Shown here piece after piece: positions 3,017-39,614 of a DNA stretch of 64,000 bases. Location: assembly GCA_015228935.1 (NCBI GenBank), contig JADGCO010000005.1, positions 13,128 through 77,127 of the forward strand, written 5' to 3'. How positions within the stretch are numbered: position 1 is the first letter of the stretch; every line of letters starts with the position of its first letter. The notes beneath the pieces were generated by a model, which was given only the letters and a program-made list of their open reading frames with translations, made no database searches and was not told the origin of the DNA. The stretch comes from Magnetococcales bacterium. Lineage in GTDB: Bacteria; Pseudomonadota; Magnetococcia; Magnetococcales; DC0425bin3. Position numbers and translations under genes: made by a program.

Positions 3017-3179
3017 GAGGCAGTCCATTAACTCTCGGATAAAAAAAATTGGGAAAAAAGATTTTATTAGGGATCCGCCCCAAACCCCGCCAGGAGGAAG
3101 GGCACAGCCCTTCCTCCTGGACCTCCATCCCAGTTTTTCATTCGTTTTTATTGAAATTAACAGGTTATTAGACAGCCTC
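3017..3179 (+). mobile_element. MITE-like element copy (163 bp, long-hairpin subtype 2)
   Basis: TIRs are GAGGCAGTCCATTAAC at 3017 and GTTATTAGACAGCCTC ending at 3179. The core has (degenerate GGATCCGCCCC)-AAACCCCG-CCAGGAGGAAGGGCacaGCCCTTCCTCCTGG (3090..3120) and then CCCAGTTTTTCA. It is collinear with 39448..39614. Confidence 0.75.
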
Positions 3180-3243
3180 CAAGATCATTATTTTTTTGAA
3201 CTTATTAATTTAAATAACGACAGCAGGAGATAAAGGTACAAAC

Positions 3244-3840
3244 ATGAAACGTAAAATATTTATCATCACTATAATTTTATCTGTGTTATCCCCATGGCCA
3301 GTGTATTCTGGGAGCTACAGAACACTTGTTGGTGGTACCGGGTCATCTCATAAGGGTGGGCACTACATAAAAAATACAAGCAAGTCTCCCCCAGCCGCAG
3401 TCGGCAAACAACCCTCATCCACAAGCTACCAGCATAACGGGAGTGACTCCTTGAGCAGTTACCAATATGGCGGGGGTGAATCTTCGATCGGATATTCAGG
3501 TGATTTTTCAAAAACCCCAATGACACATTATGACACTACCCCTCCCAAACAGAAAGCAAAAGGAACTTTTAAGGTTGTAAAGGATAACCGATTTATGCCT
3601 GCCATACAGGAAGTACCCACGATAAAAAGAGATGGCCATGGACATATATCCCGGAGTTCAAACCCAAAAGAAACTTTTGAACGTGCGAACCCATGCCCGT
3701 CAACCGGAAAAACTTCCGGAGCCTGTCCGGGATACGTGGTGGACTACATGGTACCACTCAAGCAAGGTGGTGCTGACGCACCCAGCAACATGCAGTGGCA
3801 AATGGTGCAAGATGCAAAAACCAAAGACAAGTGGGAATAA
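3244..3840 (+). CDS. secreted HNH-endonuclease-family protein, catalytic His replaced by Tyr
   Basis: Signal-peptide-like N-terminus (IFIITIILSVLSPWPVYS). The C-terminus CPSTGKTSGACPGYVVDYMVPLKQGGADAPSNMQWQMVQDAKTKDKWE matches the small periplasmic HNH family pattern CPGYVVDH(I/V)VPL..GGAD.PSNMQWQ. Codon 3745-3747 is TAC (Tyr) where His is expected. Confidence 0.6.
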   Translation: MKRKIFIITIILSVLSPWPVYSGSYRTLVGGTGSSHKGGHYIKNTSKSPPAAVGKQPSSTSYQHNGSDSLSSYQYGGGESSIGYSGDFSKTPMTHYDTTPPKQKAKGTFKVVKDNRFMPAIQEVPTIKRDGHGHISRSSNPKETFERANPCPSTGKTSGACPGYVVDYMVPLKQGGADAPSNMQWQMVQDAKTKDKWE

Positions 3841-4202
3841 ATGGAATTCCCAACTGTTCCCTGTTGAACCTCGTGTACACCAGATCTGCAATACAAAATA
3901 CAAGCAACGCTTGTTTGCGCTGTGAGACACACCTATGTACGCCAGTACATGATCACGCCGATGGTTATGCAAGCCCGCATAAAATGCCATTGTCCAATCC
4001 GCGAAATGCCTGCGAAGCTAAACCGGATCTGCAACATACTGTAATATTTATTTTTTCTGGACAGAAAATTCCCGGATGACAAGTCATGATCGTTTTTCTG
4101 AAATTTTTTCAGTGAAGAACCAGCCCCATGTGGCTAGACTCCGGCAATGCGGTGAATCGACCAAGTAAGCGAGGATTGGCTGACAGATAACGGACTCTGG
4201 GC

Positions 4203-5900
4203 ATGGAAGCGTTGGAGAAGCGATTGGAAAATCAGCAAGAGGAGAACGCACGTTCCGTTCCTTGGCAATCTGTTTTATTCCTGTTCATTCTCGCATTTCT
4301 GACTTGGTTTGCCTTTCTGGGGTATCGCGATCTGCGCGACCCGGACGAGGGACGTTATGCGGAAATTCCCCGCGAAATGGTGGCGACCGGGGATTGGCTC
4401 ACTCCCCGGCTGAATGGTTTCAAATATTTTGAAAAACCCCCCCTGAACTATTGGGGCACGGCCCTGTTTTATAAAATGCTGGGCACGGATCAGGGTGTAT
4501 CCAGGCTCTGGTGCGCGGGATTGGGATTTCTCGGCATCCTCTGGACCTTCTGGCTGGGACAACGTCTCTTCGGAACCCGGGAGGCCCTCTATGCTGCCCT
4601 GTTTCTGACCAGTTCCCTGCTCTATTTTGCCATGGGTCACATGCACACCCTGGACATGGGAACGAGTGTCTTCATGACCTTTGGCATCGGGGCACTTCTG
4701 CTCGCCCAGTCGCAACGCCAGAATCCCGGCCAGGTGCGCAATTGGATGCTTGTGGCCTGGGGAAGTCTGGCCGCCGCCACCCTCAGCAAAGGCCCCATGG
4801 GCGTGGTCCTGCCCGCCGCCGCAGTCACTCTCTATTCCCTCTGGCAACGGGATTGGGCACTCTGGCGACACCTGCACCTGGGCAAGGGCTTGTTGTTCTT
4901 CCTGTTGTTGACAGCCCCCTGGTTTGTGGCCGTCTCCCTGCGCAATCCGGAATTTCCCGACTTTTTTTTCATCCGCGAACACTGGCTGCGCTATACCACG
5001 ACCATCCACAGCCGCAATGCCTCCAATTTTTATTTCATTCCCGTATTGCTGGCCGGCTCTCTCCCCTTCATGGCCCGGGCCGTGACCGCCCTGGCCAGAC
5101 CGGCCTTTGCCTGGCGTCCGGCGGATGCAGGCACGTTTGCCCCATTACGCCTGCTGTGGGTCTATATTGTCTTCATCTTTCTGTTTTTCTCCCTCTCCAG
5201 TTCCAAGCTGATTCCGTACATACTGCCGGTCTTTCCCCCGCTGGCGCTGCTGGTCGGCCACCACCTTGTGCGCATCGATCCGGAAAATGTGCGCCTGGAC
5301 CTCCGCATCCTGGCCGTCATGACGGCCATTCTGGTTGGTGTGGCCATGCTGCCGGACATCATCGCCCATAAATCACGCCTGACGCCCGAAATTCTCGCCC
5401 AGTTTCGCTGGTGGCTCCTGGGAGGAGGCGGAATCCTGGCCGGCGGCATGCTCCTGGTGCGCCATTTTCAATACCAGGGCAAACAAGCCGTCATCACCCT
5501 GGCCATCACCGCCCTGCTCGCCTTCCAGACCATCCATGCCGGCTACCAGACCACGAGTCCGGTCTATTCGGCCCGCCAACTCGCCACGGCCATGGCCCCT
5601 TTTGTACAATCCGGCACACCGGTGTATAGTGTCGATTGCTTCTATCACTCGCTCCCCTTCTATCTGGGCCAGAACGTGACGTTGGTCCGCTACAAGGGTG
5701 AGCTGGATTTTGGCATCGATCAGGAACCCCAACACTGGATCTCCGGCATGGAAGCGTTCTATCAACAGTGGCGACAGGCACCACGGGCCGTGGCCGTTTT
5801 TCACCTCAGGGACGGTCTGTTCCAGCAGGCCCAAAAAGAGCTGTCACCCCTGCGGGTCATCTACCAGGACACCATCCGCATTGCCGTGGCCAAGCCATGA
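4203..5900 (+). CDS. arnT: ArnT-like 4-amino-4-deoxy-L-arabinose (undecaprenyl-phosphate-sugar) lipid A transferase, GT-C fold
   Basis: 565 aa polytopic membrane protein. The first loop, PDEGRYAEIPREMVATGDWLTPRLNGFKYFEKPPLNYW, is typical of the ArnT/PMT family. It heads the arn operon, and its stop overlaps the arnC start (ATGA at 5897-5900). Confidence 0.8.
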   Translation: MEALEKRLENQQEENARSVPWQSVLFLFILAFLTWFAFLGYRDLRDPDEGRYAEIPREMVATGDWLTPRLNGFKYFEKPPLNYWGTALFYKMLGTDQGVSRLWCAGLGFLGILWTFWLGQRLFGTREALYAALFLTSSLLYFAMGHMHTLDMGTSVFMTFGIGALLLAQSQRQNPGQVRNWMLVAWGSLAAATLSKGPMGVVLPAAAVTLYSLWQRDWALWRHLHLGKGLLFFLLLTAPWFVAVSLRNPEFPDFFFIREHWLRYTTTIHSRNASNFYFIPVLLAGSLPFMARAVTALARPAFAWRPADAGTFAPLRLLWVYIVFIFLFFSLSSSKLIPYILPVFPPLALLVGHHLVRIDPENVRLDLRILAVMTAILVGVAMLPDIIAHKSRLTPEILAQFRWWLLGGGGILAGGMLLVRHFQYQGKQAVITLAITALLAFQTIHAGYQTTSPVYSARQLATAMAPFVQSGTPVYSVDCFYHSLPFYLGQNVTLVRYKGELDFGIDQEPQHWISGMEAFYQQWRQAPRAVAVFHLRDGLFQQAQKELSPLRVIYQDTIRIAVAKP

Positions 5901-6868
5901 TACATTCCGAAAAAACTCCCGACATTTCCATCGTGATCCCGGTTTACAACGAAGAAGATGTCCTGCCGCACCTGTTTCGGCGTCTCTATCCGGTCCTGGA
6001 TGGCATGCACCGTCCCTATGAAGTGGTTTTCGTGGATGACGGCAGCCGCGATGCCTCGCCGATCCTGTTGCATCAGCAATTCAGGCAGTTGCCGGAAGTG
6101 ACGCGGGTGGTCATGCTGAAAAACAACTTCGGCCAACATGCCGCCATTCTGGCCGGCTTTGCCCACGCCCATGGCCGCTACGTCATCACCCTGGATGCCG
6201 ACCTGCAAAATCCCCCCGAAGAGATTCCCAAGCTCGTGAGCAAACTGGATGAAGGGTACGATTATGTCGGCACGATTCGGCGGCAACGTCGGGACCGGCT
6301 CTGGCGGCATGTGCTGTCCCGGCTCATGAACCGGCTGCGGGAGAGAGTCACCCGCATCCACATGACCGATCAGGGCTGCATGCTGCGCGGCTATGACCAG
6401 GCCATCATTCACATTTTGCGCGAATCGCACGAAGTGACCACCTACATTCCCGCCCTGGCCTTTCTCTATGCGGCCAAGCCAACCGAGGTGGTGGTGGAAC
6501 ATGAAGAACGCCAGTCGGGTCAGTCAAAATACTCCCTGTTCCGTTTGATTCAGCTCAACTTTGACCTGATGACCGGTTTTTCCACGGCACCGTTGCGCAT
6601 CTTCTCCCTGGTCGGCATCACCATCTCCTGCGCCTCTTTCCTGTTTGTCCTCTATCTCACCATCCGCCGGCTCATGATCGGACCCGAGGCCGAAGGGGTT
6701 TTCACCCTGTTTGCCATCGCCTATTTTCTTATTGGTATCATTTTGTTCGGTATCGGGCTGATGGGAGAGTACATGGGCCGGGTCTACCAGCAAACGCTGG
6801 CCCGCCCGCGTTTTCTGATCCGCACGGTGCTGGAAAAAAAATCTGCTGCGGAGTCGCCTGCACCATGA
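5897..6868 (+). CDS. arnC: undecaprenyl-phosphate 4-deoxy-4-formamido-L-arabinose transferase (GT2)
   Basis: Starts MIHSEKTPDISIVIPVYNEEDVLP, a GT2 signature, with DDGSRD and DADLQ motifs and two C-terminal transmembrane helices. The upstream part of ORF 5768.. is rejected because it overlaps arnT in another frame. Confidence 0.85.
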   Translation: MIHSEKTPDISIVIPVYNEEDVLPHLFRRLYPVLDGMHRPYEVVFVDDGSRDASPILLHQQFRQLPEVTRVVMLKNNFGQHAAILAGFAHAHGRYVITLDADLQNPPEEIPKLVSKLDEGYDYVGTIRRQRRDRLWRHVLSRLMNRLRERVTRIHMTDQGCMLRGYDQAIIHILRESHEVTTYIPALAFLYAAKPTEVVVEHEERQSGQSKYSLFRLIQLNFDLMTGFSTAPLRIFSLVGITISCASFLFVLYLTIRRLMIGPEAEGVFTLFAIAYFLIGIILFGIGLMGEYMGRVYQQTLARPRFLIRTVLEKKSAAESPAP

Positions 6869-7818
6869 CCGCCATGCCGAACAATGCCGTTGTTTTTGCC
6901 TACCACACGGTGGGTGTACGCGGCCTGGCAACCTTGCTCGCCCATGGGTTCAAAGTGCCGCTGGTGGTGACCCATCAGGACGATCCGGGCGAAAATCTCT
7001 GGTTTGACAGTGTGGCCGCCTGGGCCGACCGGGAAGGCATTCCGACCATCACCCCCGACTCGCCCAATCTGCCCGAAGTTCTGGACCGGGTGAACACCTG
7101 CCAACCAGATTTTTTCTTTTCCTTTTATTATCGCCACCTGTTGGGAGCCGAACTTCTCGCGGTTCCGACCCGGGGGGCCTACAACCTGCACGGCTCGCTG
7201 TTACCCAAATATCGCGGGCGCGTCCCCATCAACTGGGCCGTTCTGCACGGCGAACGGAAAACCGGAGCCTCCCTGCACCAAATGGTCCTCAAGGCCGATG
7301 CCGGGGACCTGGTCGATCAGGAAGCGGTCGCCATCCTGCCCAACGACACGGCCCACATGGTCTTTCAAAAGGTGGTTTGTGCCGGCGAGCGCGTTCTGCA
7401 CCGTGCCTTGCCGCGTCTGCTGGCCGGCAACGCACCGCATACCCCCATGAATCTTGCCCAGGGAAGCTGCTTCGGACGGCGGCGTCCCGAGGATGGCCGC
7501 ATCGATTGGCGTGCCCCGGCCTGGACGATTCACAATCTCATCCGGGCCGTGGCCCCACCTTATCCCGGGGCTTTTTTTGAGCATGGCCTCCACCGCATCC
7601 AGGTCCTGGCCAGCCACTATCGACAGGAACCAGCCCAAGGTCCAACATCAGAGTCACCACGCCTGTATTGGGAAGCCGGTCGTTGTCATGTCGATTGCGT
7701 CGATGGCGAGCGCCTGCTGCTGCCCCGACTGGCCATAGACGGACAACCGCTTGATGAACAGGAATTTTTGCGTATCCTTGGCTGTTCCGGCATATCTCTC
7801 GGAATGAACGGGCAATGA
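6865..7818 (+). CDS. arnA: UDP-4-amino-4-deoxy-L-arabinose formyltransferase (stand-alone ArnA N-terminal domain)
   Basis: Formyltransferase motifs are present: [36 protein letters not shown] overlaps link it to both neighbours. At 317 aa it matches the ArnA formyltransferase half only. Confidence 0.8.
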
Positions 7819-8873
7819 CAGTGAAAATATTGATCTTTGGCGTCAACGGCTTCATCGGCCATCATCTTTCCCAGCGCATCCTGACCACCACACCGTGGCA
7901 TGTTTACGGCATGGACATGCATACGGATCGGGTAGAGGCCCATCTGTCCCACCCCCAATTCCATTTTTTCGAGGGGGATATTGCCATCAACCGGGAGTGG
8001 ATGGAGTACCACATCAAAAAATGCGATGTGATCCTGCCCCTGGTGGCCATTGCCACCCCGGCAGAATATGTACGACACCCCTTGAAGGTTTTCGAGCTGG
8101 ACTTCGAGGCCAACCTGCCCATTGTGCGGGCCTGTGTCCACCACAAGAAACGGGTGATTTTTCCGTCCACGTCCGAAGTCTATGGCATGTGTACGGACAG
8201 CGCCTTTCATCCGGATCAATCGTCCCTGGTTCTCGGTCCCATCACCAAGCAACGCTGGATCTACTCCTGCGCCAAGCAGTTGATGGATCGGGTCATCTGG
8301 GCCTATGGCATGGAAGAGGGTCTAAATTTTACCCTGTTCCGTCCCTTCAACTGGATCGGCCCCGGACTCGACAATCTCCACACCCCCAAGGAAGGCAGTT
8401 CACGGGTGGTGACCCAGTTTCTGGGCCACATTGCCCGGGGTGAACCCATCTCCCTGGTGGATGGCGGGCAACAACGGCGCTGCTTTACGGATATCGAGGA
8501 CGGCATCAACGCGCTCATGGAAGTCATCCGCAATCCACAAGGGGTGGCCCGCGGCAAAATCTACAATATCGGCAACCCGGACAATGATATTTCCATCCGC
8601 GAGCTGGCCGAAATCATGCTTGAAATTGCCCATGAATTCCCGGAATACCATGCCGGCCTGAAAAGTGTCCGTCTGGTCGATGTCCAGGCCAAAACCTACT
8701 ATGGCGAAGGCTATCAGGATATCCAGACCCGGGTACCCTGGATCGACAACATTCGCGAGGATTTGCATTGGGAGCCTGGCACGACCCTGCGGAGTTCCCT
8801 GCGCAAAATATTTGCCACCTATCGGCACGAGGTGGAACAGGCCGGTTCCCTGCTGGATGATTCCGGCAGGTAA
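7815..8873 (+). CDS. arnA: UDP-glucuronate oxidative decarboxylase (stand-alone ArnA C-terminal SDR domain)
   Basis: Rossmann motif [14 protein letters not shown]. The rest reads as an extended SDR with YSCAKQ (YxxxK). At 352 aa it matches the ArnA dehydrogenase half. Confidence 0.8.
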
Positions 8874-8928
8874 CCCTGACCCTGCTTCCGACCCACAAGA
8901 TCGATGATTCCGGAAGGCAACCCTGACC
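8856..8928 (+). repeat. 26-bp direct repeat (24/26 identity, 47-bp period) across the arnA(DH) stop and arnD start
   Basis: Copy 1 is gatgattccggcaggtaaccctgacc at 8856..8881 and contains the TAA stop. Copy 2 is gatgattccggaaggcaaccctgacc at 8903..8928 and abuts the arnD ATG. Confidence 0.9.
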
Positions 8929-9843
8929 ATGCATCTGGCTCTCAAGGTTGATGTCGATACCTATCGAGGCACCCGGGAAGGGGTCCCGGCCCTTCTGCGG
9001 CTTTTTGACCGCCATCAGGTGCGGGCCACCTTTCTGTTCAGTCTGGGACCCGACCATACCGGACGTGCCCTGCGGCGCATTTTCCGCCGGGGATTTCTCA
9101 ACAAGATTGGCCGCACCTCGGTTTTGAGCCACTATGGACTCAAGACGGTGCTGTATGGCGTTCTGCTGCCGGGACCCCATATCGGGCGTCAGTCCGGAGA
9201 GATCATGCGGGCCGTGGCAGCAGCCGGTCACGAAACCGGGATTCACTGCCATGACCATGTCTATTGGCAGGATCATGTGGCCAACCAGGACCGGGCCTGG
9301 ACCCAAAGAGAACTCGCCAAAGCCAGTGCCGTCTATGAAGAAGTCTTGGGACACCCGGCCCGGGTCCATGGGGCAGCCGGTTGGCAAATCAATTCCCATA
9401 CCCTGGCCCTGCAAGAGGCGTTGGGCCTGACCCATGCGAGCGATACCCGTGGTCTGCACCCCTTTTTGCCGATCATGGATGGCGTGCAATCCACATGTAT
9501 ACAAATGCCGACCACCCTGCCCACCCTGGATGAACTGCTCGGGCGGGATGGCAGCACCCCAGACAATGTCCATGAGCGCATTCTGACCGCCAGCCAGACT
9601 CCCCTCCCCCACGGCCATGTGTATACCCTGCACGCCGAACTGGAAGGGATGAAACTTTATCCGGTCCTGGAAACCTTGCTGCAAAAATGGCAACAGAGGG
9701 GTTATACCTTGGGCACCCTGGCCGATCTCAAGGAACGCCTGACTGGCCTGACCTTGCCCCAACACACTGTGACCTGGGGAGAGGTCCCGGGCCGTTCCGG
9801 ACGCCTGGCCATGCAAGGTCCCAGGCTGGAACCAAGCCAATAA
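8929..9843 (+). CDS. arnD: 4-deoxy-4-formamido-L-arabinose-phosphoundecaprenol deformylase (polysaccharide deacetylase family)
   Basis: N-terminus LALKVDVDTYRGTREGVPALLRLFDRHQVRATFLFSLGPDHTGRA is typical of ArnD. It is the last gene of the arn operon. Confidence 0.8.
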   Translation: MHLALKVDVDTYRGTREGVPALLRLFDRHQVRATFLFSLGPDHTGRALRRIFRRGFLNKIGRTSVLSHYGLKTVLYGVLLPGPHIGRQSGEIMRAVAAAGHETGIHCHDHVYWQDHVANQDRAWTQRELAKASAVYEEVLGHPARVHGAAGWQINSHTLALQEALGLTHASDTRGLHPFLPIMDGVQSTCIQMPTTLPTLDELLGRDGSTPDNVHERILTASQTPLPHGHVYTLHAELEGMKLYPVLETLLQKWQQRGYTLGTLADLKERLTGLTLPQHTVTWGEVPGRSGRLAMQGPRLEPSQ

Positions 9844-9955
9844 CAGGCAAGGTTCCAGACTTGTAACAAGGAATATAATATGGTTTCAAAATTTAAATAA
9901 TCCAAAAATCGGGATTCAGGTTCAAGATCAAGCAGATCTGCCCTGAAATGAAGAG

Positions 9956-11536: not shown

Positions 11537-11540
11537 AGCC

Positions 11541-13061: not shown

Positions 13062-13085
13062 TCATGACAACTGCATGCGTTTTTT

Positions 13086-13243
13086 GCAACCATTCAGAAC
13101 CCTTTCAAAAAAAAGGATTTGATATGAAAGACTTTGTTGGGGCTTCGCCCCAAACCCCACCAGGGGGAAGGGCACAGCCCTTCCCCCTGGACCCCCATCC
13201 CAGTTTTTCAAACGTTTTTTCGAGAAAAATCTGAATCGTTAAC
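13086..13243 (+). mobile_element. MITE-like element copy (158 bp, long-hairpin subtype 1)
   Basis: Left end is GCAACCATTCAGAACCC and right end is CTGAATCGTTAAC. It carries GGGGCTTCGCCCC and the hairpin CCAGGGGGAAGGGCacaGCCCTTCCCCCTGG (13160..13190). It lies between the ATP-grasp gene and the asn-synthase-like gene. Confidence 0.8.
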
Positions 13244-13265
13244 GTTTATTTTTGGCAAGTACGGC

Positions 13266-15208: not shown

Positions 15209-15212
<4 letters not shown>
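13266..15212 (+). CDS. asparagine synthase (glutamine-hydrolysing) family amidotransferase
   Basis: Starts MCGITGFF, a class II glutamine amidotransferase with Cys2 as nucleophile. The synthetase PP-loop is SGGMDSS. The upstream ORF extension from 13134 is read-through of the MITE and is rejected. Confidence 0.85.
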
Positions 15213-16815
<1,603 letters not shown>

Positions 16816-17026: not shown

Positions 17027-17275
17027 CATCCACTCCTCCGGCACCGCGAGGACCGGTCGATTTCAACACCGAACGACACCCACTCCGGCAGCACGGCAAG
17101 GACCGATTCACGCCTCAACGCAAGAGTGACACCCACTCCGGCGGCACGGCAAGGACCGATTCACGCTTCAGTACCAGAGTGACACCCACTCCGGCAGCAC
17201 GGCAAGGACCGATCCACGCTTCAACGCCAGAGTGACACCCACTCCAGTGGCGCTGCAAAGGCCGGTTTACGCCTC
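17027..17275. repeat. 53-bp tandem repeat, ~4.6 units, in the rplU-rpmA spacer
   Basis: Units start at 17075, 17128, 17181 and 17234 (gacacccactccggcagcacggcaaggaccgattcacgcctcaacgcaagagt and variants). A degenerate unit lies at ~17027. The last unit runs into the rplU stop codon. Confidence 0.9.
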
Positions 17276-17575
17276 GATACCGGTGATCTGCAATTCGGTC
17301 AAATTCTGCCGGTGCCCCTGTTTGCGCCGGTAATTTTTGCGCCGGCGACGTTTGAACACCAGAATTTTTTTGTCACGCAGATGCTGCAAAATGCGCGCCG
17401 TGACCCGGGTAGTGGCGGCGGCGTCTCCTGTTTTGACGCCGGCATCGCCGGTGACGAGCAGGACATCCGTCAGGGTCACACTTTCCCCTTTTTCACCCGG
17501 CAGCCGTTCCACGCGCAAAACGTCATTGACCGCCACCTTGTACTGCTTGCCGCCGGTTCGCACTACCGCAATCAT
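17267..17575 (-). CDS. rplU: 50S ribosomal protein L21
   Basis: Starts MIAVVRTGGKQYKVAVNDVLRVERL, 102 aa. Start chosen at 17575. Confidence 0.95.
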   Translation of the reverse strand: MIAVVRTGGKQYKVAVNDVLRVERLPGEKGESVTLTDVLLVTGDAGVKTGDAAATTRVTARILQHLRDKKILVFKRRRRKNYRRKQGHRQNLTELQITGIEA

Positions 17576-19538: not shown

Positions 19539-19615
19539 CGGGGTGTAGCTCAGCCTGGTAGAGCACTGCGTTCGGGACGCAGGGGCCGGAGGTTCGAATC
19601 CTCTCACCCCGACCA
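19539..19615 (+). tRNA. tRNA-Pro (anticodon CGG)
   Basis: Folded by hand as a 77-nt cloverleaf. Acceptor stem is CGGGGTG/CACCCCG, the anticodon loop is TTCGGGA, the T-loop is TTCGAAT, and CCA is encoded. Confidence 0.9.
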
Positions 19616-19657: not shown

Positions 19658-19815
19658 TTGTTCCAGCGTAACTGTTCATCATCCGGCAACGAATCGGGGT
19701 CCAGGGGGCTGGCTCCCCTGGCAGGTTCAGGACGGAGTCCTGGTGGGGTTCGGGGCGAAGCCATGATAAAGGCTTTCATATTCAGGCTTTTCTTGAAAGG
19801 GTGCTGAATAGTTAC
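19658..19815 (-). mobile_element. MITE-like element copy (158 bp, short-hairpin subtype) with 8-bp target-site duplication
   Basis: TIRs are GTAACTGTTCA and TGAATAGTTAC. The element is flanked on both sides by GTTCCAGC (19650-57 and 19816-23). Confidence 0.9.
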
Positions 19816-20071: not shown

Positions 20072-20148
20072 TGGCGCGCCCGGAAGGATTCGAACCTCCG
20101 ACCCCTTGGTTCGTAGCCAAGTACTCTATCCAGCTGAGCTACGGGCGC
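20072..20148 (-). tRNA. tRNA-Arg (anticodon ACG)
   Basis: The reverse complement folds as a 77-nt cloverleaf. Acceptor stem is GCGCCCG/CGGGCGC, the anticodon loop is CTACGAA, the T-loop is TTCGAAT, and CCA is encoded. Confidence 0.9.
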
Positions 20149-21854: not shown

Positions 21855-21930
21855 GAAAAAAAAGCATGGGGCTTTGCCCCATACCCAGCCAGGGCTTTGT
21901 CCTGGACCTGCCAGGGAGCCAGCCCCATGA
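21855..21930 (+). repeat. degenerate MITE core fragment
   Basis: GGGGCTTTGCCCC ... CCAGGgctttgtCCTGG ACCTGCCAGGGAGCCAGCCCC aligns with the reverse complement of 19658..19815. No intact TIRs were seen. Confidence 0.5.
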
Positions 21931-24509: not shown

Positions 24510-24634
24510 GCGTCCATTTCGAGATAAGACCCAAATCCCGCCAGGAGGAAGGGCAGAGACGCTTCCTCCTGGACCTCCCTCCCAGTTTTTCATTCATTTT
24601 TTATGGGAAAAAACACGCATCTCAAAGTGGACGC
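24510..24634 (+). mobile_element. MITE-like element copy (125 bp, lacks the GGGGC mini-hairpin)
   Basis: TIRs are GCGTCCATTT at 24510 and AAGTGGACGC ending at 24634. The hairpin is CCAGGAGGAAG-(10 nt)-CTTCCTCCTGG at 24541..24572, followed by CCCAGTTTTTCA. Confidence 0.65.
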
Positions 24635-31640: not shown

Positions 31641-32677
31641 ATGATCCGATTCGTGAAATGGGAAACCCCCTGGTGCTGATTGTGGATGATGAATCGTTGC
31701 AACGCCTGCTCATGCGGGAAGCATTGAAGCAGGATGGTTTTCATGTCGCAGACGCAGAAAACGGAATCCAGGCCTGGAATCTGATGCAAAATCATTGTCC
31801 CGATATGGTGATTTCCGATGTGGTGATGCCGGAAATGGATGGTTTTGCCTTATGTGAATCCATTCGCCAACAAGAGAAAATGAAGTACCTGCCAGTTGTC
31901 ATGGTCACCAGTCTGGATGACCCGGCATCCATTGATCGTGGCTATCGAATGGGGGCCACTGATTTTATCACCAAACCCATCAACTGGAGTCTGTTGGGTC
32001 ACCGTGTGCGCCATATTTTACGGGCAGCTCGTACCGCCCAGGCCCTGGCAGAAAGAGAAATTGATCTGATACGCACACGCATGGAGATCATCCGGCGTCT
32101 GGGTCAGGCGGCGGAATATCGCGACAACGAGACCGGCCTCCATATCATGCGAATGAGTCGATATTCTGCTTTATTGGGACAAGCCCTTGGCCTCTCTTCC
32201 TTCGACCAGGATCTGTTGCTCAATGCCTCTCCCATGCATGATGTCGGCAAAATCGGCATTCCCGACAGCATCCTCTTGAAACCGGGAAAACTGTCCAACA
32301 ATGAGTTCGGCGTCATGAAACAGCACACCATCCTGGGGGCAAAACTCCTGGAAAATGATCCCGCTCTGCTGTTGCGCACGGCCCACATGATCGCCCTGAC
32401 CCATCACGAAAAATGGGACGGTCATGGATACCCGTATGGACTGTCAGGAAAGGATATTCCAGTCATGGGTCGTATCTGTAGTCTGGCCGATGTGTTCGAT
32501 GCCTTGACTTCCCATCGCCCTTACAAACAACCCTGGAGCGTGACAGATGCGGTCGCTGAAATCCGGAAATGCTCCGGCACGGCCTTCGACCCCGACATGG
32601 TTCGCGTATTCGTTGACATCATTCCCGAAATAGTGAGAATCAAAGATGCATTCTCCGATAAAAGTCCAATTGAGTGA
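31637..32677 (+). CDS. response regulator with HD-GYP domain (putative c-di-GMP phosphodiesterase)
   Basis: REC has ISDVVMPEMDG. The output domain has HDVGKIGIP and HHEKWDGHGYPYGL. An ATGA overlap links it to the upstream kinase. Confidence 0.9.
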   Translation: MNDPIREMGNPLVLIVDDESLQRLLMREALKQDGFHVADAENGIQAWNLMQNHCPDMVISDVVMPEMDGFALCESIRQQEKMKYLPVVMVTSLDDPASIDRGYRMGATDFITKPINWSLLGHRVRHILRAARTAQALAEREIDLIRTRMEIIRRLGQAAEYRDNETGLHIMRMSRYSALLGQALGLSSFDQDLLLNASPMHDVGKIGIPDSILLKPGKLSNNEFGVMKQHTILGAKLLENDPALLLRTAHMIALTHHEKWDGHGYPYGLSGKDIPVMGRICSLADVFDALTSHRPYKQPWSVTDAVAEIRKCSGTAFDPDMVRVFVDIIPEIVRIKDAFSDKSPIE

Positions 32678-32717
32678 AATATTCAGATCAAATCACAAAC
32701 CGTCTCATCAATCAGCC

Positions 32718-33839
32718 ATGATATCCATTCTGATTGTGGATGATGATCACGTAACACGTATTTTTCTGGAAGAATTGCTCCACCAGGAAGGGTATCAGGT
32801 GGTCCTGGCCACCAACGGCCAGGAAGCACTGGTTCGCCTGGATGAAACATGGTGCGATTTGATTTTCATGGACATCCAAATGCCGGTTATGGACGGATAT
32901 CAGGCTACGCAACTGATCAAAGCCATGGAACAACGAAAAGAATGGTTCATTCCAGTAATTTTTCTTACCTCGGTGCTAACCGATCAGGAACTGGCTCACT
33001 GTCTGGAATGCGGCGGCGATGATTTTCTCACCAAGCCCCCCAACCCCATCATTCTGAAAGCGCGACTCCACGCCTGGTTGCAGCGGGCCGATCTGGTCAA
33101 CAGATTGGCCATGAATCGGCTTGATTTGGAAAATGTAATCCTCAAGATGCGCCAGGACGATCAATTCGACCGACGTGGATTGCGTGTCTTGATGACTCCC
33201 TTGGAAAAAACCAACGGAGATATCGTACTCTCCGCCTGCCGATCTGATGGCGTGCAATATCTCGTGGTGGGAGACTTTACCGGACACGGCTTGGCAGCGG
33301 CCGTTTGTGGGCCCCTGGTGTCCGACATTTTCTATCGTCTGACGTTACAGAATGTTCCGCTGCACACAATCATTTCCAAGATCAACGCAACAATTTTTCG
33401 TAGATTGCCGGTCAATATGTTCATGGCTGCCGCCTTCCTGGAAATGGACCGGGCCAAAAGCATCATACGCATCTGGAATGCTGCCATGCCTGCGGTGATA
33501 CTCATCCGTTCCGGAGAAATCGTTTGCAAATTCCCCCCCACTCTTCCACCCCTGGGCATAGGACAGCATTCCATCCATAACGAATCCTGCGCAGAATATT
33601 CCCTGACAGACAGTGACCGGATTTACCTGTATTCTGATGGAATTGTTGAAACCCGTTCACCTGCATGTGAACTGTTCGGCGAAGAACGATTGGACCGTTT
33701 TTTAAAAGAAATCTTTCCCTCCTGGACAGATTTGCGAACCTTACTCAAGGTGCTTGAATCATTTCGCGCCGGACAGGAACAAACCGATGACATTACCTTG
33801 GTAGAAGCAAGACAGGACCAGGGATGGACAGAAACATGA
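32718..33839 (+). CDS. response regulator with PP2C/SpoIIE-type phosphatase domain
   Basis: REC has FMDIQMPVMDG. The PP2C region has VVGDFTGHGLAAAV, LYSDGIVE and DDITLVEA. Start chosen at the ATG at 32718. Confidence 0.85.
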   Translation: MISILIVDDDHVTRIFLEELLHQEGYQVVLATNGQEALVRLDETWCDLIFMDIQMPVMDGYQATQLIKAMEQRKEWFIPVIFLTSVLTDQELAHCLECGGDDFLTKPPNPIILKARLHAWLQRADLVNRLAMNRLDLENVILKMRQDDQFDRRGLRVLMTPLEKTNGDIVLSACRSDGVQYLVVGDFTGHGLAAAVCGPLVSDIFYRLTLQNVPLHTIISKINATIFRRLPVNMFMAAAFLEMDRAKSIIRIWNAAMPAVILIRSGEIVCKFPPTLPPLGIGQHSIHNESCAEYSLTDSDRIYLYSDGIVETRSPACELFGEERLDRFLKEIFPSWTDLRTLLKVLESFRAGQEQTDDITLVEARQDQGWTET

Positions 33840-33996
33840 TCATCCAGTCTTTCAAATATGTTTCAGGAAGTTCCAGATACCGATATCACAAACATCCGTT
33901 TGAATATCCATACAAATTTCACTGAAATTCAAGGTTATGCGTCGTGACCGTGGCGGGGATTTCGTAGTTTATACCAGACTGTATTCAAAATAAAAG

Positions 33997-34152
33997 GTGA
34001 ATATTCATCCCCCCATTAAAAAACGTTTGAAAAACCGGGATGAAAGTCCAGGAGGAAGCGGCTCTGCCCTTCCTCCTGGCTGGGTTTGGAGTGGATCCCC
34101 AACCCATCTTTAACATGCTTTGGCCATTTTTGGCAGGTTTTGGCGGGGTTGC
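33997..34152 (-). mobile_element. MITE-like element copy (156 bp, inverted orientation)
   Basis: The plus strand begins GTGAATATTCATCCCCCC, which is the right TIR in reverse orientation, and ends GGTTGC. The hairpin is CCAGGAGGAAG-(10 nt)-CTTCCTCCTGG at 34048..34079. Confidence 0.7.
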
Positions 34153-35015
34153 ATACTCCAACCTGTTGATTTGTTTGTATTGCATTTTTTTACTTCGTTT
34201 TGTAGTGCCATAATCTTTTCATGAAGCATTGACACCGTCGGCTTTTGTCATATCCAGGCGGGTATGTACATTCACCGCACACAAACTCGCAACACGGCCA
34301 CGGGTGAATCCTATTTCACTCACCGCTTGGTACGCTCTGAACGTTCAGGCACCAAAGTCAGACAGGTGACCCTCCTGAATCTTGGTCGTCATTTCAGAAT
34401 CGGCCAAGATCAGTAGCCAATGCTGTGAGCGTTACAAATCTGTGGAGCAAACATTTTGCCTCATCATCTCTGCCATGATTGACTGTTTGTGTAAAGTTTC
34501 TCAGATCAAGAACACAAAAAACACAGTCTTCAACAGAATCAAAGGCTTTAATTTTCAGATCACCATTGTTGCCAATCAAGTCATCCTTCCCCGGATTTGT
34601 CCCCAACCCGAAATTGCCCAGCCCAAGTAATATTCTTTCAATTCTTCCTGCTGGATAATTTCCCGGATAGGGATAAAGAACTTCTTATCCCGTCGCGCAT
34701 GATGTACCTGTCATCAGGCCAATCACGTCATCTGCGTCCGTGACATCCCCCCCTGCCTTCTTGACACCATCCATCCATTTGTCCAAATCTGACATTGACA
34801 AGTTCTCCTGATGATAATAAAGCATAAACTTACATACTGCTCAACAATTCAGATTATGTTATTAAACCCTTATAAATCCATGTCAATCATGATTTTCAAA
34901 AAAGCTTGTTTTTTTGCGGAAACAGACTAACAAATTGAAAAAGAATAACTTTTTTTATCCATGAACCTGTACAGCCGAGCCTGCTGAGATTACTGGCACT
35001 CTGTTTCAGGCAACG

Positions 35016-35047
35016 CCAGGAGGAGACGACCAACCGTCTCCTCCTGG
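35016..35047. repeat. solitary 13-bp-stem hairpin related to the MITE core
   Basis: CCAGGAGGAGACG-accaac-CGTCTCCTCCTGG, located ~70 nt downstream of the patatin-like gene stop. Confidence 0.8.
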
Positions 35048-35116
35048 TTTCCTGTTCAAAAACTTCGTACATTGCAACGAAATCTTTCAGAGCTGCAGAG
35101 TGAAAACATCGACCTT

Positions 35117-36310
35117 TCAACCCAGATGTGTTCTGGTATGGATATGTCCGCCCTGGCAGTGGTGGACACAGGCTCCTTGCAGAGCGGTCTTTTTTCTGCT
35201 GATCCAGGGAGAACCTTGGATGGCATGCAGCATGTCGGTATAGCCGGCGTCACAGCGATTTTTGACGGAAATCCGGGAAAACTCGTGCCCGGCTTCCGGG
35301 GGAATTCCCGGACCTGGTTGATATGAAACATGAATGATGTCCAGGTCATGAATCTGGTCCGGCTCACTCCCCGTTCCCATTCTTGTTCCTGGGACATCGC
35401 CGAAGATTTGTCTGAATTCTGCTTGGTGTGCCTGGGGTGCCTGGCGCAACAACTCCACAAGCATGCGCCGGGAGTTCCAACGCCGGGTTGTATTGCGGAT
35501 CTCCCTCTGAACCCGGGACGCATACCGAATCTGCGCCTCCCGAAACATCACATCATCCATCGTTTTCAATTCCGGACCCGTGGCCGAAAAAAGATCCACC
35601 ATGAATATCAGCAGGGAACCATTGACCGGGTTATCCAGAAACGTTTGCAAGGGCGTATTGGAGGCTACACCGCCATCCCAATACTGCTCCCCATCGATCA
35701 CCACAGGAGCGAATCCGGGTGGCAAGGCGCCACTGGCCAAGGTATGTTCCGGAGTCAGCTTTCTCTCCCGGTTGTCGAAAAATTTCAGTTCCCCTGTTGT
35801 CACCTTTGTCACTCCCAGGGACAAACGGGGCGCATGTTTGGAATTGATGTAGTCAAAATCCGCCAGTTCCAGGAGGGTTTGCCGCAGGGGGGAAGCATCC
35901 GCATAACTCAATGCATCGGGAGTTCCCGGGGGTGAAATCTGCGGTATGGGCGGTATCCGTGGAGAGAAAAAATGTGGCTGCCCGGTCAGTTGGGTTTGCA
36001 ATCCGCTCATTTTGATGAAGACCGTCGGGGAAAGATTGTACAACCACGCATCCCACCACGCACTGGGCCTGGTCACAATCTCCCAGAATTTTTCCAGTTG
36101 TTGCAGACGTTTATCTGGCGGATTGCCGGCCAGGATGGTGGCACCGACCGCACCGATGGAAATACCGGAGATCCATTCCGGCTCGAATCCCTTTTCGGTC
36201 ATGGCCCGATAACACCCCAATTGATAGGGTCCAAAAGCCGCCCCACCCTGTAGTGCCAATGCAACGTGCGGTTTGCCACCGCCATTCTGCCCCGATTTAT
36301 GCCCTGTCAT
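35117..36310 (-). CDS. patatin-like phospholipase family protein
   Basis: Oxyanion region is LALQGGAAFGPYQLG. The nucleophile elbow is GISIGA (GxSxG). The catalytic Asp motif is YWDGGVASNTP. Start taken at the ATG at 36310, which has a GGAGG ribosome-binding site. The ORF maximum uses a TTG at 36379. Confidence 0.8.
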   Translation of the reverse strand: MTGHKSGQNGGGKPHVALALQGGAAFGPYQLGCYRAMTEKGFEPEWISGISIGAVGATILAGNPPDKRLQQLEKFWEIVTRPSAWWDAWLYNLSPTVFIKMSGLQTQLTGQPHFFSPRIPPIPQISPPGTPDALSYADASPLRQTLLELADFDYINSKHAPRLSLGVTKVTTGELKFFDNRERKLTPEHTLASGALPPGFAPVVIDGEQYWDGGVASNTPLQTFLDNPVNGSLLIFMVDLFSATGPELKTMDDVMFREAQIRYASRVQREIRNTTRRWNSRRMLVELLRQAPQAHQAEFRQIFGDVPGTRMGTGSEPDQIHDLDIIHVSYQPGPGIPPEAGHEFSRISVKNRCDAGYTDMLHAIQGSPWISRKKTALQGACVHHCQGGHIHTRTHLG

Positions 36311-36602
36311 GGGAACCCCTCCAGTTGCTTTGACTCCGTTCAGCCGATCCAAACGGAAGCGTGACAGGAGGTTACTCAACTATATTCTTAATTTCCAGGA
36401 TTTTTGCGCCGGGAACGCCAGGATTTATGATAATTATTGAAAAATCTCAATCAATACAAAGCCTGTATTCCATATATTAAAATATATTAATTATCAGACA
36501 ATCTCCTGTTCCAGACCGAACCCGAATATTCAGACAACCTCTTGTTCCTGTTCCAGACCAGACACGATCAAACACGACCATGCCAGATTCAAAACGCAGC
36601 AA

Positions 36603-37655
36603 TCATTCGCGATGAAAATGCAGGTGGGCTGTAATCTCTTCCCGATCATGGTAGAGTTGTTTGCAACGCAGATCGTGGGCCAACCCTGCCTGTTCCAGGG
36701 CACCGTGAATCATGTCCTGACAGTGTTGCAGGGCCGCAAAACGTTTTTTCATGGGCAGCTTCAGGTTGAAGATGGTTTCGCGGCACCAGCGCTGCCTGCC
36801 CCAGAGTATGACGAGTTCGGCCACGCGGGTGGGTTTGTCCACGATATCGCACACCATCCAGGCCACCGGTTTGGGTGGCACAAACCGCCAGGCATCGGTG
36901 CGCACATGCCGCACCTGACCTCCCGCCAGCAACCCGGCAGCCAGATTGGCATTGTCCACAGCCGTCACCCGCAATCCCTGCCGCAGCAAATACCAGCTCC
37001 AGCCACCCGGGGCCGCTCCCAGGTCCACGGCAAGCAATCCGGGACGTAACCGTTTTTGACGATCCTGGGGCGTCAAAAAATGGCCCATGGCCTCTTCCAG
37101 TTTGAGTGCCGCCCGACTGGGTGCCTCCCGCTGCATTTTCAGGCGCGGAATTCCCATGTGAAAAACAGACCCATTGGTACTCGGCGTGAGGCCGACATGC
37201 ACCGTGGCCGTATCCAAAAAAAAGAGATGCAACTGCCAGGATGCGCCGGGATCCAGCAAACCCTCGGCCTGCAACCGTTTGTCCAGAAAACGGGTCAAAC
37301 TTTGGCACAAAGGCGAAAGAACCCTGCCGGAGTTGGTATCAGGGGTTTCCACCCACACCTTGCCTACCGCCACACCCAAAGCCGTCACCCTGGCCATGAT
37401 GGGTCCGACCCGATCCGTGGCTGGCAATCCGGTCAGGGCCGGCCCCGTCACCAGCCATTGCCGGACAAAGACCATATCCCGGAAATTCAGACGGGCCAGT
37501 ACCTCGACCGGTTTCTCTCCAACCGGGAAAAAAGTGACAAACCCCTCTCCGGTTGCCACCTTCCCCGGTATCCCTGAAGATCCAGCCATGGCCATGATCT
37601 CATCTGCACAGCTTGCCTCAAATCCGGCCCGACAATAAAGAATCAACCGGTCCAT
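36603..37655 (-). CDS. rlmM: 23S rRNA (cytidine2498-2'-O)-methyltransferase RlmM
   Basis: N-terminus MDRLILYCRAGFEASCADEI fits a THUMP-like RlmM N-terminus. The SAM-binding region is AVDLGAAPGGWS. Length 350 aa. Confidence 0.75.
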   Translation of the reverse strand: MDRLILYCRAGFEASCADEIMAMAGSSGIPGKVATGEGFVTFFPVGEKPVEVLARLNFRDMVFVRQWLVTGPALTGLPATDRVGPIMARVTALGVAVGKVWVETPDTNSGRVLSPLCQSLTRFLDKRLQAEGLLDPGASWQLHLFFLDTATVHVGLTPSTNGSVFHMGIPRLKMQREAPSRAALKLEEAMGHFLTPQDRQKRLRPGLLAVDLGAAPGGWSWYLLRQGLRVTAVDNANLAAGLLAGGQVRHVRTDAWRFVPPKPVAWMVCDIVDKPTRVAELVILWGRQRWCRETIFNLKLPMKKRFAALQHCQDMIHGALEQAGLAHDLRCKQLYHDREEITAHLHFHRE

Positions 37656-37949
37656 GGAAAACCTTCCCTTCCCGCAAAAATCCCGCCTTCACCTGCCACA
37701 ATGGCTGACTCCATGCACCGGGAAATCTGCAAAGATTTATCGGAAGAGTCCTCCCCGGCCCCGGTGGGTAACACAGGCCTGATCCGTCTGCACGGAAAAA
37801 AAGAGTGGCGATCAGGTCAGGAAAGGGCTACCACTTCCAGGTCAATTTCAGCTACCATGACCCGGAGATATTGGCGGGACTTTATTTTGATGGATTTTGA
37901 CGGCAGAGTTTGGAATCTACCCCAGCCACGCACGGAGCATTCGGCCACC

Positions 37950-39443
37950 ATGGACGGCAACCCGACATTGCCATTCGGAAAACACAAGGCAGACTGGATT
38001 TTTCTGGTTTTTCTGCTTTTGACGGTCTGTTACCAGACGCTTGCCTTCAATTTCGTACATCACGTCTATCCCCGTTTTGGATATCCTGTCGAAGATATTT
38101 TTGTTGGTCTTTCCCGAAATCTGTATGAGCGTGGTGTTTTTGCCGATAATTTCCGCAGCATGTACGAACAATCCATTTTTTCTGAAAACGACTTGTCAAA
38201 CAAATCCGCACCTGACCCGGCATCTGATAAAAAAATTCAATATAACACCTGGCGCACACCCTCCTATCCAATCTATGTCAGTGGCATCTACACCCTGTTT
38301 GGTGACCAGGAAATCAATGCCATCATATTCAATAATGGAATTTTATTTTTGTCGGTTATCCTGACCTTTTTCATGGGACGTCTCATCCATCCGGTGGCAG
38401 GTTTGCTGGTGGCCATGCTGACAATGGCCGATCCGATCTATATTCAAACCTCGAACACTTTTTTGGCGGACGAGGCATTCCACTTTCACATCGTGTTGTT
38501 TCTCCTGGCAGCCATCTGGATGTTCAAACATGGCGTAACCACGGGACGGGTTGCCTTGTGTGCTGTTTTTCTCGTCCTGCAAGAATATGTGCGGCCCTCC
38601 GGCATGTATCTCTGGATCGTCTTTTGCCTCTCCCTGATTTTTCACCTCTGGAATCAAGTCCCCAGACTCCAGATAGCCAAACTGGTCCTGCTGTTTCTGG
38701 CCATTCATTTTGCAGGTATTGGCATCTGGACCCTGCGCAACGTCATGGTGGGGGGCAGTGCCGATTTTGTAGGCATGCAAGGCTCCCACCTGGTTCGCTT
38801 CCATATGCCCCTGGTGATTGCGGAGCGGGATGGCATCAGTGAAAGCCAGGCCGGGGAAAAATTGTTCGCACCGCTCAATTCCCGGTTGGCACACATGAAA
38901 ACCACCCGCGAACGGGACGACTATCTGGGTCAGGTCGGACGCGAAATGATCCTGGAAAACTACCGCTTCTCTCTGCTGGTCATGATCAAAACAATGTTGC
39001 CGCGCCTCTTTTTTTCTCCACCGCCCGAACATCCGCCGGTTTTCACCGCCCTGGATCATTATCAGAAACTTCAGGATTATCTCCTCGCCCAGGAGGATGT
39101 CACCAGTCGCATGGAGCGCAACCGGAACGTCATCGCCTATCTTTTCCAGCATAAACACTGGGTTGTCCTGTATCAATTGTTCATGGCCAAGCTGGTCAAC
39201 CCCCTGCTGATCCTCTGTGCCTTGCTGGGATTTTGGCACATGATTCGCGGTACCGAACATAATTTTCGAACCATTGGCTGGTTTCTTTTTCTCTTCTGGG
39301 GGCAAATGACTCTCCTGCACCTGATCTATGCCCTGGCCCGCTACCGCATGCCCATCATGCCGGCGGTGTATCTTCTGGCCGTCTTTTTTGTGATCCAGAC
39401 AGCCCAAAAATGGCGTAAAAACAAAATGAGCCACCACCCCTGA
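37950..39443 (+). CDS. polytopic membrane protein, GT-C (ArnT/PMT_2)-like glycosyltransferase candidate
   Basis: About 10-12 hydrophobic segments. WRTPSYPIYVSGIY resembles the RPPLYP loop of PMT_2-type GT-C enzymes. The start is uncertain: the ORF opens at 37701 and 37950 (MDGNPTLPF) precedes the first transmembrane segment. Confidence 0.45.
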   Translation: MDGNPTLPFGKHKADWIFLVFLLLTVCYQTLAFNFVHHVYPRFGYPVEDIFVGLSRNLYERGVFADNFRSMYEQSIFSENDLSNKSAPDPASDKKIQYNTWRTPSYPIYVSGIYTLFGDQEINAIIFNNGILFLSVILTFFMGRLIHPVAGLLVAMLTMADPIYIQTSNTFLADEAFHFHIVLFLLAAIWMFKHGVTTGRVALCAVFLVLQEYVRPSGMYLWIVFCLSLIFHLWNQVPRLQIAKLVLLFLAIHFAGIGIWTLRNVMVGGSADFVGMQGSHLVRFHMPLVIAERDGISESQAGEKLFAPLNSRLAHMKTTRERDDYLGQVGREMILENYRFSLLVMIKTMLPRLFFSPPPEHPPVFTALDHYQKLQDYLLAQEDVTSRMERNRNVIAYLFQHKHWVVLYQLFMAKLVNPLLILCALLGFWHMIRGTEHNFRTIGWFLFLFWGQMTLLHLIYALARYRMPIMPAVYLLAVFFVIQTAQKWRKNKMSHHP

Positions 39444-39447
39444 CACT

Positions 39448-39614
39448 GAGAGGCTGTCGATTAACCCTCGGATAAATATAATTGGAAAGAAAAATTTTAT
39501 TGGGGCTTCGCCCCAAACCCCGCCAGGAGAAAGGGCACAGCCCTTCCTCCTGGACCTCCATCCCAGTTTTTCATTCGTTTTATTTGAAATTAACAAGTTA
39601 TCAGACAGCCTCTG
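39448..39614 (+). mobile_element. MITE-like element copy (~167 bp, long-hairpin subtype 2)
   Basis: TIRs are GAGAGGCTGTCGATTAAC and GTTATCAGACAGCCTCTG. It carries GGGGCTTCGCCCC and the hairpin at 39523..39553, which has one uncompensated G-to-A change. It lies between convergent genes. CTGAG is present at both ends. Confidence 0.8.

Follow-up and report, generated by a model that had tools for sequence, protein, structure and literature searches.

A two-hairpin module, with a flank that tracks its stem, in intergenic repeats of a Magnetococcales bacterium and in viral contigs

In a 64,000-nucleotide stretch of DNA from a magnetotactic bacterium of the Magnetococcales (contig JADGCO010000005.1 of assembly GCA_015228935.1, positions 13,128 to 77,127, called the window throughout), a 14-bp hairpin recurs between genes, and an earlier note, made from the letters alone, had proposed that paired substitutions preserve it from copy to copy. 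What is this hairpin a part of, and what is being kept? It forms the second of two stem-loops in a conserved structured module—a mini-hairpin, a spacer, the 14-bp hairpin and a C-rich flank—and we lean toward the view that the whole is a structured, probably mobile DNA repeat, in which a two-hairpin module has been multiplied inside intergenic repeats while its fold was constrained. That its fold is constrained is shown by homologues, in which both helices persist although the second has a new sequence, and old copies decay.

Compensatory change in a repeated palindrome is, by itself, ordinary, and it has been described as common in the hairpins of REPINs, the paired form of repetitive extragenic palindromic (REP) sequences (PMC3116915). 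Two things are unusual here. One is a two-hairpin module, absent from Rfam, that is common to Magnetococcales chromosomes and to about 54 viral contigs. The other is a third segment that changes along with each stem, in parallel orientation; this covariation among three partners (both arms and the 3' flank) was overlooked by the earlier note, and a simple hairpin model does not predict it.

The module and its repeats

All seven hairpins are present where the earlier note had placed them, with the base changes that it described. The copy at 3090-3120 has arms CCAGGAGGAAGGGC and GCCCTTCCTCCTGG around the loop ACA; at 13160-13190, stem position 6 has gone from A:T to G:C on both arms; at 15282-15312, position 4 has gone from G:C to A:T, again on both; at 39523-39553, G8 has become A in one arm only, leaving an A.C mismatch; and 35016-35047 is a 13-bp hairpin with the common outer stem CCAGGAGGA/TCCTCCTGG. 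Some details needed amending. The G:C variant at 13160 is not unique, the same pair being found in a copy on another contig (L006:9885), and the two are one inherited event. What had been called a different 10-nt apical part in 24541-24572 and 34048-34079 is in fact an extra nucleotide that both have in the 3' arm, a bulged G, together with a loop C that has become G, and the copy at 24541 has a single C-to-A mismatch as well. The mini-hairpin had been said to vary only in its loop, which is so for the copies at 13160, 15282 and 39523 but not for those at 3090, 24541 and 34048, where the mini-hairpin stem carries changes or mismatches (three of the six window copies).

The 14-mer, at two mismatches or fewer, occurs 13 times where 0.78 would be expected, and a pattern drawn from the flanks alone (CCAAAYCC, a gap, ACYYYCNTCCCRGTTTTT) finds exactly the six window copies against an expectation of 0. 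The core of about 75 nt reads TTGGGGC-TYC-GCCCCAA, ACCCCG, the 14-bp hairpin and then GACCTCCATCCCAGTTTTTCA; in other words, a mini-hairpin GGGGC-NNN-GCCCC, a spacer AAACCCCG, the hairpin and the C-rich flank. Stated generally, the module is Y-GGGGC-NNN-GCCCC-R, AACCCC-R, a hairpin that is usually CCAG...CTGG, and an A with a C-rich flank (GGGATGGAGGTCCAGGAGGAAGGGCTGTGCCCTTCCTCCTGG is an example of its G-rich strand). Rfam gave no match to it in the window (tRNAs only), in the copies (chance-level hairpin matches) or in the viral and related loci described below, and the two-hairpin module was not found in the literature searched.

The core is set inside non-coding intergenic repeats of about 150-170 nt, bounded by terminal inverted repeats of 13-17 nt, and the whole element can fold as a long imperfect stem. 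One core is found with two unrelated sets of end repeats: subfamily A has AGAGGCWGTCYATTAAC / GTTATYAGACAGCCTC, and subfamily B, together with the S type, has GTAACYRTTCAG / CTGAATMGTTAC.

Paired changes within one genome

We read 152 kb of non-redundant sequence, comprising the window and loci L004-L011 (assembly GCA_039908575.1, the metagenome-assembled genome (MAG) Magnetococcus sp. DMHC-1, in which contig JAMOAV010000003.1 is the match to the window). The other loci were reached through protein look-ups, using six-frame peptides of the element, which matched a single cluster, and homologues of a kinase, which led to one more DMHC-1 locus; walking along the contigs yielded few further copies, and the 152 kb are only part of the genome. 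This sequence holds 11 long-hairpin copies, six in the window and five on three other contigs, the latter including a tandem pair (L006 9885/10037) and two copies truncated by contig ends. All 11 are intergenic, several of them 0-25 nt from a stop codon. An additional, degenerate copy (L008:15535) lies inside an annotated gene and has lost 6 of its 14 pairs, from which it follows that complementarity is not kept automatically.

How strong, then, is the case for paired change inside this one genome? Across the 11 copies, 10 of the 14 pairs are invariant and 2 vary on both sides (position 6, with G:C in two copies by common descent, and position 4, which is A:T once and A.C twice). Four cells are unpaired: A.C at position 4 in two copies, A.C at position 8 and G.A at position 13. 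When the type of substitution and the copies that carry it are fixed and the stem position is randomised, the probability of two or more compensated pairs is 0.025 and that of at least one is 0.33. The excess is modest, and uncompensated changes are about as many as compensated ones; the observation is real, but its statistical weight inside the window is small. Nor does conservation of the stems exceed that of the unpaired core. It is the core as a whole that diverges about 3-fold more slowly than the rest of the element (12/222 vs 43/281 for the outer element, Fisher P = 5e-4). The proposal that selection acts on structure, over and above shared descent, proves right, though not on the evidence inside the window; it is relatives that bear it out.

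Relatives that keep the fold and replace the sequence

With a covariance model built from the 11 copies, a full-length homologue spanning the whole model (50.8 bits) was found in another Magnetococcales MAG, HQL66. Its first hairpin and spacer are nearly identical to the model, and its second helix differs at seven positions, five of them double changes, one a bulge and one a terminal mismatch. With this homologue and the solo hairpin at 35016-35047 included, both partners have changed in 9 of 14 pairs, pairing is kept in 96.7% of cells, and none of 500 shuffles attains the covariation score of the alignment, which was itself fitted to the model. A third MAG, HQL63, has about eleven short-hairpin elements in a 20-kb locus, in both orientations (between co-directional genes, three are sense and three antisense), and among the short-hairpin relatives one pair takes the states A:U, G.U and G:C. 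It is these relatives, and not the within-genome data, that make the stronger case for structural constraint.

The module is also found in viruses. The motif GGGGC-NNN-GCCCC-R-AACCCC-R-C is present in 15 + 39 IMG/VR contigs (~54), where by our own estimate fewer than about two would be expected by chance, and the loci that carry it range from 36 to 71% GC. The second-hairpin sequences of the viral homologues are unrelated but usually paired, and an automatic search finds a clean second hairpin in about 26 of 46 distinct instances; the pair closing the first hairpin is T:A or C:G in all 14 distinct instances of the first viral scan. In one phage the module lies between the large terminase and portal genes, in another it follows the major capsid gene, and phage elements occur in both orientations between co-directional genes. 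One carrier is a Rep/G2P replicon. Two more are circovirus-like genomes from IMG/VR, L015 (2025 nt) and L025 (2083 nt), each with a Rep (HUH motif and helicase domain), a Cap and an origin stem-loop AAGTCGGGAG-AACTATATTAC-CTCCCGACTT; in both, the module stands just beyond the capsid gene, and its G-rich strand is the one with the nonanucleotide, by convention the strand that is packaged. Plasmid and phage BLAST searches gave no match to the module, and the flank pattern, taken to genome and metagenome contig collections, returned one chance match in each and nothing more.

Some viral contigs have features of their own. A low-GC phage contig (L016 1440-1810, minus strand) has three module units in tandem at a spacing of about 110-120 nt; after two of them come promoter-like TTGAAT/TTGACC ... 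TATAAT-type boxes and a further GC hairpin. A sub-type in L059 (329-351 and 10146-10168), L043 and L058 has the module followed by CRYTCGCCRTGTGGCAG, after which L059 and L058 have a further GC-rich hairpin; the two copies in L059 are in direct orientation, one near each end of a viral contig of 11.6 kb. One contig that bears the module, from a Mu-like phage, also has a twister-sister ribozyme (L017 5180-5274, 54.6 bits), apparently unrelated to the module.

A flank that mirrors the stem

The clearest single comparison is between two cores, those of 13160 and L006:10037, which differ at exactly three of 74 positions. The changes, A36G, T57C and T66C, fall on the middle base of three pentamers: GGAGG of the 5' arm, CCTCC of the 3' arm and a second CCTCC, that of the flank. 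By our arithmetic, three random changes would fall on those three sites with a probability of about 1.5e-5. The rule is simple enough to state: beyond a linker of 1 nt, the flank runs as a parallel complement of the 5' arm from position 4 onward or, equivalently, it mirrors the 3' arm across TGGA. Stem and flank can be read side by side as GGAGGAAGGG/CCTCCATCCC, GAGGC/CTCCG, GAGAA/CTCTA and GGAGC/CCTCG, or in shorter form as GGAC/CCTG, GGGC/CCCG and GGGAC/CCCTG.

Does the rule hold beyond the copies that suggested it? Among 14 representatives, 57 of 68 positions match, against 37.8 when stems and flanks are permuted (0 of 100,000 permutations as high). A second set, gathered after the idea arose and parsed automatically with the register fixed, gives 45 of 70 against 28.2 (0 of 50,000). 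Shuffling only the order of bases within each flank gives 67.0 where 89 of 128 are observed (0 of 50,000 as high, P<2e-5), and a parallel model accounts for 68 of 85 positions vs 49 of 85 for a direct repeat. The first hairpin and its spacer have the same form, GCCCC-AAA-CCCCG being a perfect mirror repeat. We know of no copying process that produces mirror repeats, so the mirroring of stem by flank points to selection for a three-stranded or similar fold.

A flank that tracks its stem in this manner accords better, on the sequences compared, with an intramolecular triplex than with a plain hairpin. Positions 4-7 of the 5' arm are purine in 86 of 109 bases (29 instances), and the flank base opposite an A:T pair, when it is not T, is usually A, which suits purine-motif triples (G.G:C, A.A:T and T.A:T) on the G-rich strand. 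Each unit of that strand would then consist of a third strand, a 3-4-nt turn, a purine arm, a triloop and a pyrimidine arm: CGGGG-TTT-GGGGC-NNN-GCCCC for the first unit and GGGATGGAGG-TCCA-GGAGGAAGGGC-TGT-GCCCTTCCTCC for the second. The triples would be of the reverse-Hoogsteen kind, with no need of acid pH, and the structure might act as a signal, for priming or for recognition, in second-strand synthesis or transposition. Tentatively, then, the module could be a natural tandem intramolecular triplex, acting on single-stranded DNA, with three-way covariation that runs from Magnetococcales repeats to phages and circovirus-like viruses; this is a possibility in which we would not yet place our trust.

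The triplex comes with three caveats. Pairs 1-3 covary, and yet they would need to open for the turn; the first flank base, opposite pair 4 across a 1-nt linker, would be hard to square with pairs 1-3 being formed; and many instances pit a C-run against a G-run and carry little information. Other structures were considered and set aside. Pairing of the flank CCUCC with the left-arm GGAGG yields no more than 5 bp, in a polarity at odds with the wider pattern, and a G-quadruplex or i-motif is feasible only in the instances with G/C runs, not in mixed stems.

Known triplex formers—the mirror repeats of H-DNA, "paperclip" oligonucleotides and polypurine reverse-Hoogsteen hairpins—resemble the module in having a purine arm, a pyrimidine arm and a third segment that mirrors across a turn, which here is 3-4 nt long, and the module's change from A:T plus T to G:C plus C keeps the base triple isomorphic. 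They are, however, synthetic designs or simple homopurine tracts, whereas the module is a short, sequence-variable motif conserved across genomes. If the triplex were real, comparative sequence evidence would for the first time support a family of triplex structures from bacteria and their viruses, sequence-specific biological roles of triplex DNA would become testable on a short and naturally varying motif, and there would be a handle on the transfer of small structured elements among cells, phages and single-stranded DNA viruses.

A structured, probably mobile DNA repeat

What would hold such a fold constant while its sequence drifts? In the reading that we prefer, folded DNA, most plausibly the single-stranded G-rich strand, would be recognised by a replication or transposition enzyme, and the constraint would act on the lineages that propagate. 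Compensated differences would mark separate source lineages, and single mismatches would be decay after insertion. The recognised shape would probably be more than a hairpin, because the flank mirrors the 3' arm. With moderate confidence, and on comparative grounds, we would favour a role at the DNA level because orientation is independent of transcription, because the module is present in single-stranded DNA viruses and because of the mirror-repeat geometry. That the repeats have multiplied is seen from their two sets of ends, from the core-only copies, from tandem pairs and from copies that lie where contigs end.

A number of points weigh against this reading. None of the tests tells a fold in DNA from a fold in RNA. 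No transposase was seen among the window genes examined, and neither an autonomous partner element nor a transposase turned up in the ~152 kb read. As to target-site duplication, the element flanks permit a TA duplication within G-TA-AC ... GT-TA-C, which is a candidate only, and no presence/absence polymorphism was seen at an orthologous site. The viral module is mostly single and without end repeats, and "mobile" is unsupported there. To these must be added the modest within-genome excess of compensated pairs and the fact that the position-4 pair lies within CCWGG on both arms, which may be a mutation hot spot.

The fold might instead be selected as RNA, in a cis element whose hairpins form in read-through transcripts and bring about termination or 3'-end protection. 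For each of the six window copies there is a neighbouring gene to which it can be taken as sense, and several come just past stop codons; the plus-strand RNA folds are stable (z = -4.3 to -5.1); a T-run follows the core; and the G.U intermediates of the short-hairpin relatives are on the plus strand. We nevertheless think this explanation unlikely, for both orientations are seen between co-directional genes, which argues against a strand-specific RNA role, one copy sits in a divergent promoter spacer, and the unpaired C-rich segments are as conserved as the stems. Moreover, where the 14-bp helix has an uncompensated change, the plus strand shows A.C or C.A and never G.U. With intrinsic terminators, in particular, the element has in common a stable GC-rich stem-loop near gene ends and a T-run downstream, but that T-run begins 13 nt from the stem and not within 0-2 nt, orientation is mixed relative to transcription, the C-rich flanks are conserved, and a terminator scan reported 0 copies; we rejected that candidate. 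Rejected too was a Shine-Dalgarno or anti-Shine-Dalgarno role, which the earlier note had hinted at from strings within the stem: the 13160 variant lacks AGGAGG, the stems of homologues are unrelated, and the elements lie in either orientation to genes.

A second alternative, that the fold is not selected at all, we consider quite unlikely. On this account the elements are recent copies of a perfect palindrome, and their pairs come from symmetric hot spots or from hairpin-templated correction. Only two compensated events are seen in 11 copies, one or more being expected in a third of randomisations. Position 4 falls in CCAGG / CCTGG, of which CCAAG and CTTGG are the expected products of 5-methylcytosine deamination, and two other copies have the same G-to-A change with no change in its partner. 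In Escherichia coli, template-switch repair of quasi-palindromes is established. Against this, CCWGG is not depleted in the 152 kb (observed/expected 1.04, n=1099) and CCAAG/CTTGG is not in excess (0.84); position 6 lies outside any CCWGG site; homologues in another species and in viruses swap most of the stem and yet stay paired; pairing is lost in the degenerate copy; and templated correction cannot yield the mirror relation with the flank. Dcm-type deamination at CCWGG, as a neutral cause of the position-4 pair, was set aside on these k-mer counts, which bear no signature of it, and is retained as a caveat. In the same 152 kb, CTAGG/CCTAG has only 3 occurrences; its scarcity, beside a CCWGG that is not depleted and a slight under-representation of CCAAG/CTTGG, is a pattern usually ascribed to very-short-patch repair.

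The REP family is the nearest well-described comparison. Group 3 REPs are perfect palindromes interrupted by 3-4 nt, those of S. maltophilia being 16 nt interrupted by 3 nt, and GTAG is a defining feature of REPs (PMC8266576). Like REPs and REPINs, the present element has short GC-rich palindromes in many intergenic copies (11 in 152 kb), in both orientations and in clusters, with a conserved single-stranded motif beside a stem that is free to change while paired. Unlike them, it has as its conserved neighbour a second hairpin and AAACCCC, it is bounded by terminal inverted repeats, and its module is also found in phage and circovirus-like genomes. That it is nonetheless a REP/REPIN-type element mobilised by a REP-associated tyrosine transposase (RAYT), as a 14-nt palindrome interrupted by 3 nt much like group 3 REPs (PMC8266576) and compensatory changes in clustered extragenic copies (PMC3116915) might suggest, is very unlikely, since no GTAG lies beside the stem on either strand (ACCCCG/A stands 5' of it on the plus strand, GGAGGT on the minus), inverted doublets are not seen, only direct tandems (the L006 9885/10037 pair and the HQL63 arrays), the conserved neighbour is a hairpin with its spacer, and there is no Y1 transposase in the gene tables of the loci read or among the open reading frames (ORFs) of the window.

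Bacterial miniature inverted-repeat transposable elements (MITEs), such as Correia, ERIC/IRU, RUP and Nezha, offer the other comparison. The element is like them in being non-coding, 150-170 nt long and bounded by terminal inverted repeats, in having subfamilies and internally deleted derivatives, in being inserted between genes near gene ends, and in its long imperfect whole-element stem. It is unlike them in that two unrelated sets of end repeats, as well as core-only copies, surround one core, and it follows that the conserved unit is the inner module, not the ends. The structured, probably mobile repeat that we favour is best filed with the REP/MITE kind of structured intergenic repeat, and its core module is much wider in distribution.

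The copies and their surroundings

Two L-type copies of the window belong to subfamily A. The first (3016..3180, plus strand) has terminal inverted repeats AGAGGCAGTCCATTAAC / GTTATTAGACAGCCTC, a degenerate mini-hairpin at 3067-3083, the main hairpin at 3090-3120 and the mirror flank CCTCCATCCC at 3122-3131; the second (39448..39616, plus) lies between convergent genes, with its uncompensated A.C at position 8 of the hairpin 39523-39553. Two others, both on the plus strand, belong to subfamily B. The copy at 13086..13243, with ends GCAACCATTCAGA / TCTGAATCGTTAAC, occupies the spacer between a rimK-like gene and asnB, and beside its hairpin (13160-13190, G:C at position 6) the flank CCCCCATCCC at 13192-13201 has the third matching change. 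The copy at 15209..15366 (GTAACCATTCAGA / TCTGAATAGTTAC; hairpin 15282-15312, A:T at position 4) lies between the convergent asnB and obg, which both terminate in ...TCG TAA; the TAA of asnB (15210-15212) and that of obg (15363-15365, minus strand) fall inside the end repeats, at 15209-15225 and 15354-15366. The AsnB encoded here has no close homologue, the next best being 54% identical.

Core-only copies are found at 24518..24605 (plus), in a divergent spacer, upstream of a gene for a hybrid kinase, and at 34018..34109 (minus). In the former, the hairpin at 24541-24572 has the G bulge and one mismatch and the mini-hairpin is degenerate; in the latter, the hairpin at 34048-34079 has the same bulge and the flank has diverged to CTTTCATCCC. 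The solo 13-bp hairpin (35016..35047, plus, 32.9 bits) is about 70 nt beyond a patatin-like gene and has no clear mini-hairpin or mirror flank beside it.

The S-type relative at 996..1144 (minus) has ends GTAACTGTTCA / TGAATAGTTAC, as in subfamily B, and the same mini-hairpin and spacer, followed by a short second hairpin, CCAGGA-TTCCG-TCCTGG, and then ACCTG. A copy about 90% identical to it, at 19668..19815 (minus), is just downstream of tRNA-Pro, and an S-type core at 21866..21930 (plus) reads GGGGCTTTGCCCC, ATACCCAG, CCAGGGC-TTT-GTCCTGG and ACCTGCC. A 43-nt remnant at 46419..46461 (plus) consists of end repeats alone, GTAACTGTTTCAGGC ... GCTGGATAGTTAC. The copies at 996-1144 and 19668-19815, in the same orientation, flank an 18.7-kb block of lipid A and polysaccharide modification genes, one end of which adjoins tRNA-Pro (19539-19615) and tRNA-Arg (20072-20148); this may be an island boundary or a coincidence.

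Around 40000-48000 the GC skew of the window passes from negative to positive, and all six long-hairpin copies are in the negative part; from 40 kb to the end of the contig the only copy is the terminal one (L011 9-99). Compared with the sister assembly GCA_015229045.1, the window is 99.4% identical from 4013 onward. Upstream of arnT, the sister has SIR2_2 and DUF87 where the window has a DUF3782/NERD gene and the element at 3016-3180, so that window positions 1-4012, set against L005 1-3777, look like a variable, defence-like islet.

An annotated hypothetical protein of 298 aa, P0242 (L006 10001-10897, with a sister copy P0001), begins at an ATG inside a subfamily B element (MKDFVGASPQTPPGGRAQPF...). 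We rejected a coding role for this small ORF, since conservation does not extend to its frame and the peptide is altered by the compensating changes; P0242 is probably a mis-called start or a spurious gene.

Finally, there are tandem repeats at 1745-1849 (21 nt, four or more copies, inside the ORF 1130-2290), at 17075-17281 (53 nt, about four units) and at 42594-42701 (54 nt, two copies). Receiver domains are numerous across the window, and 53912-57277 and 57189-60911 are tandem hybrid histidine kinase paralogues with DNA segments that are 71-81% identical.

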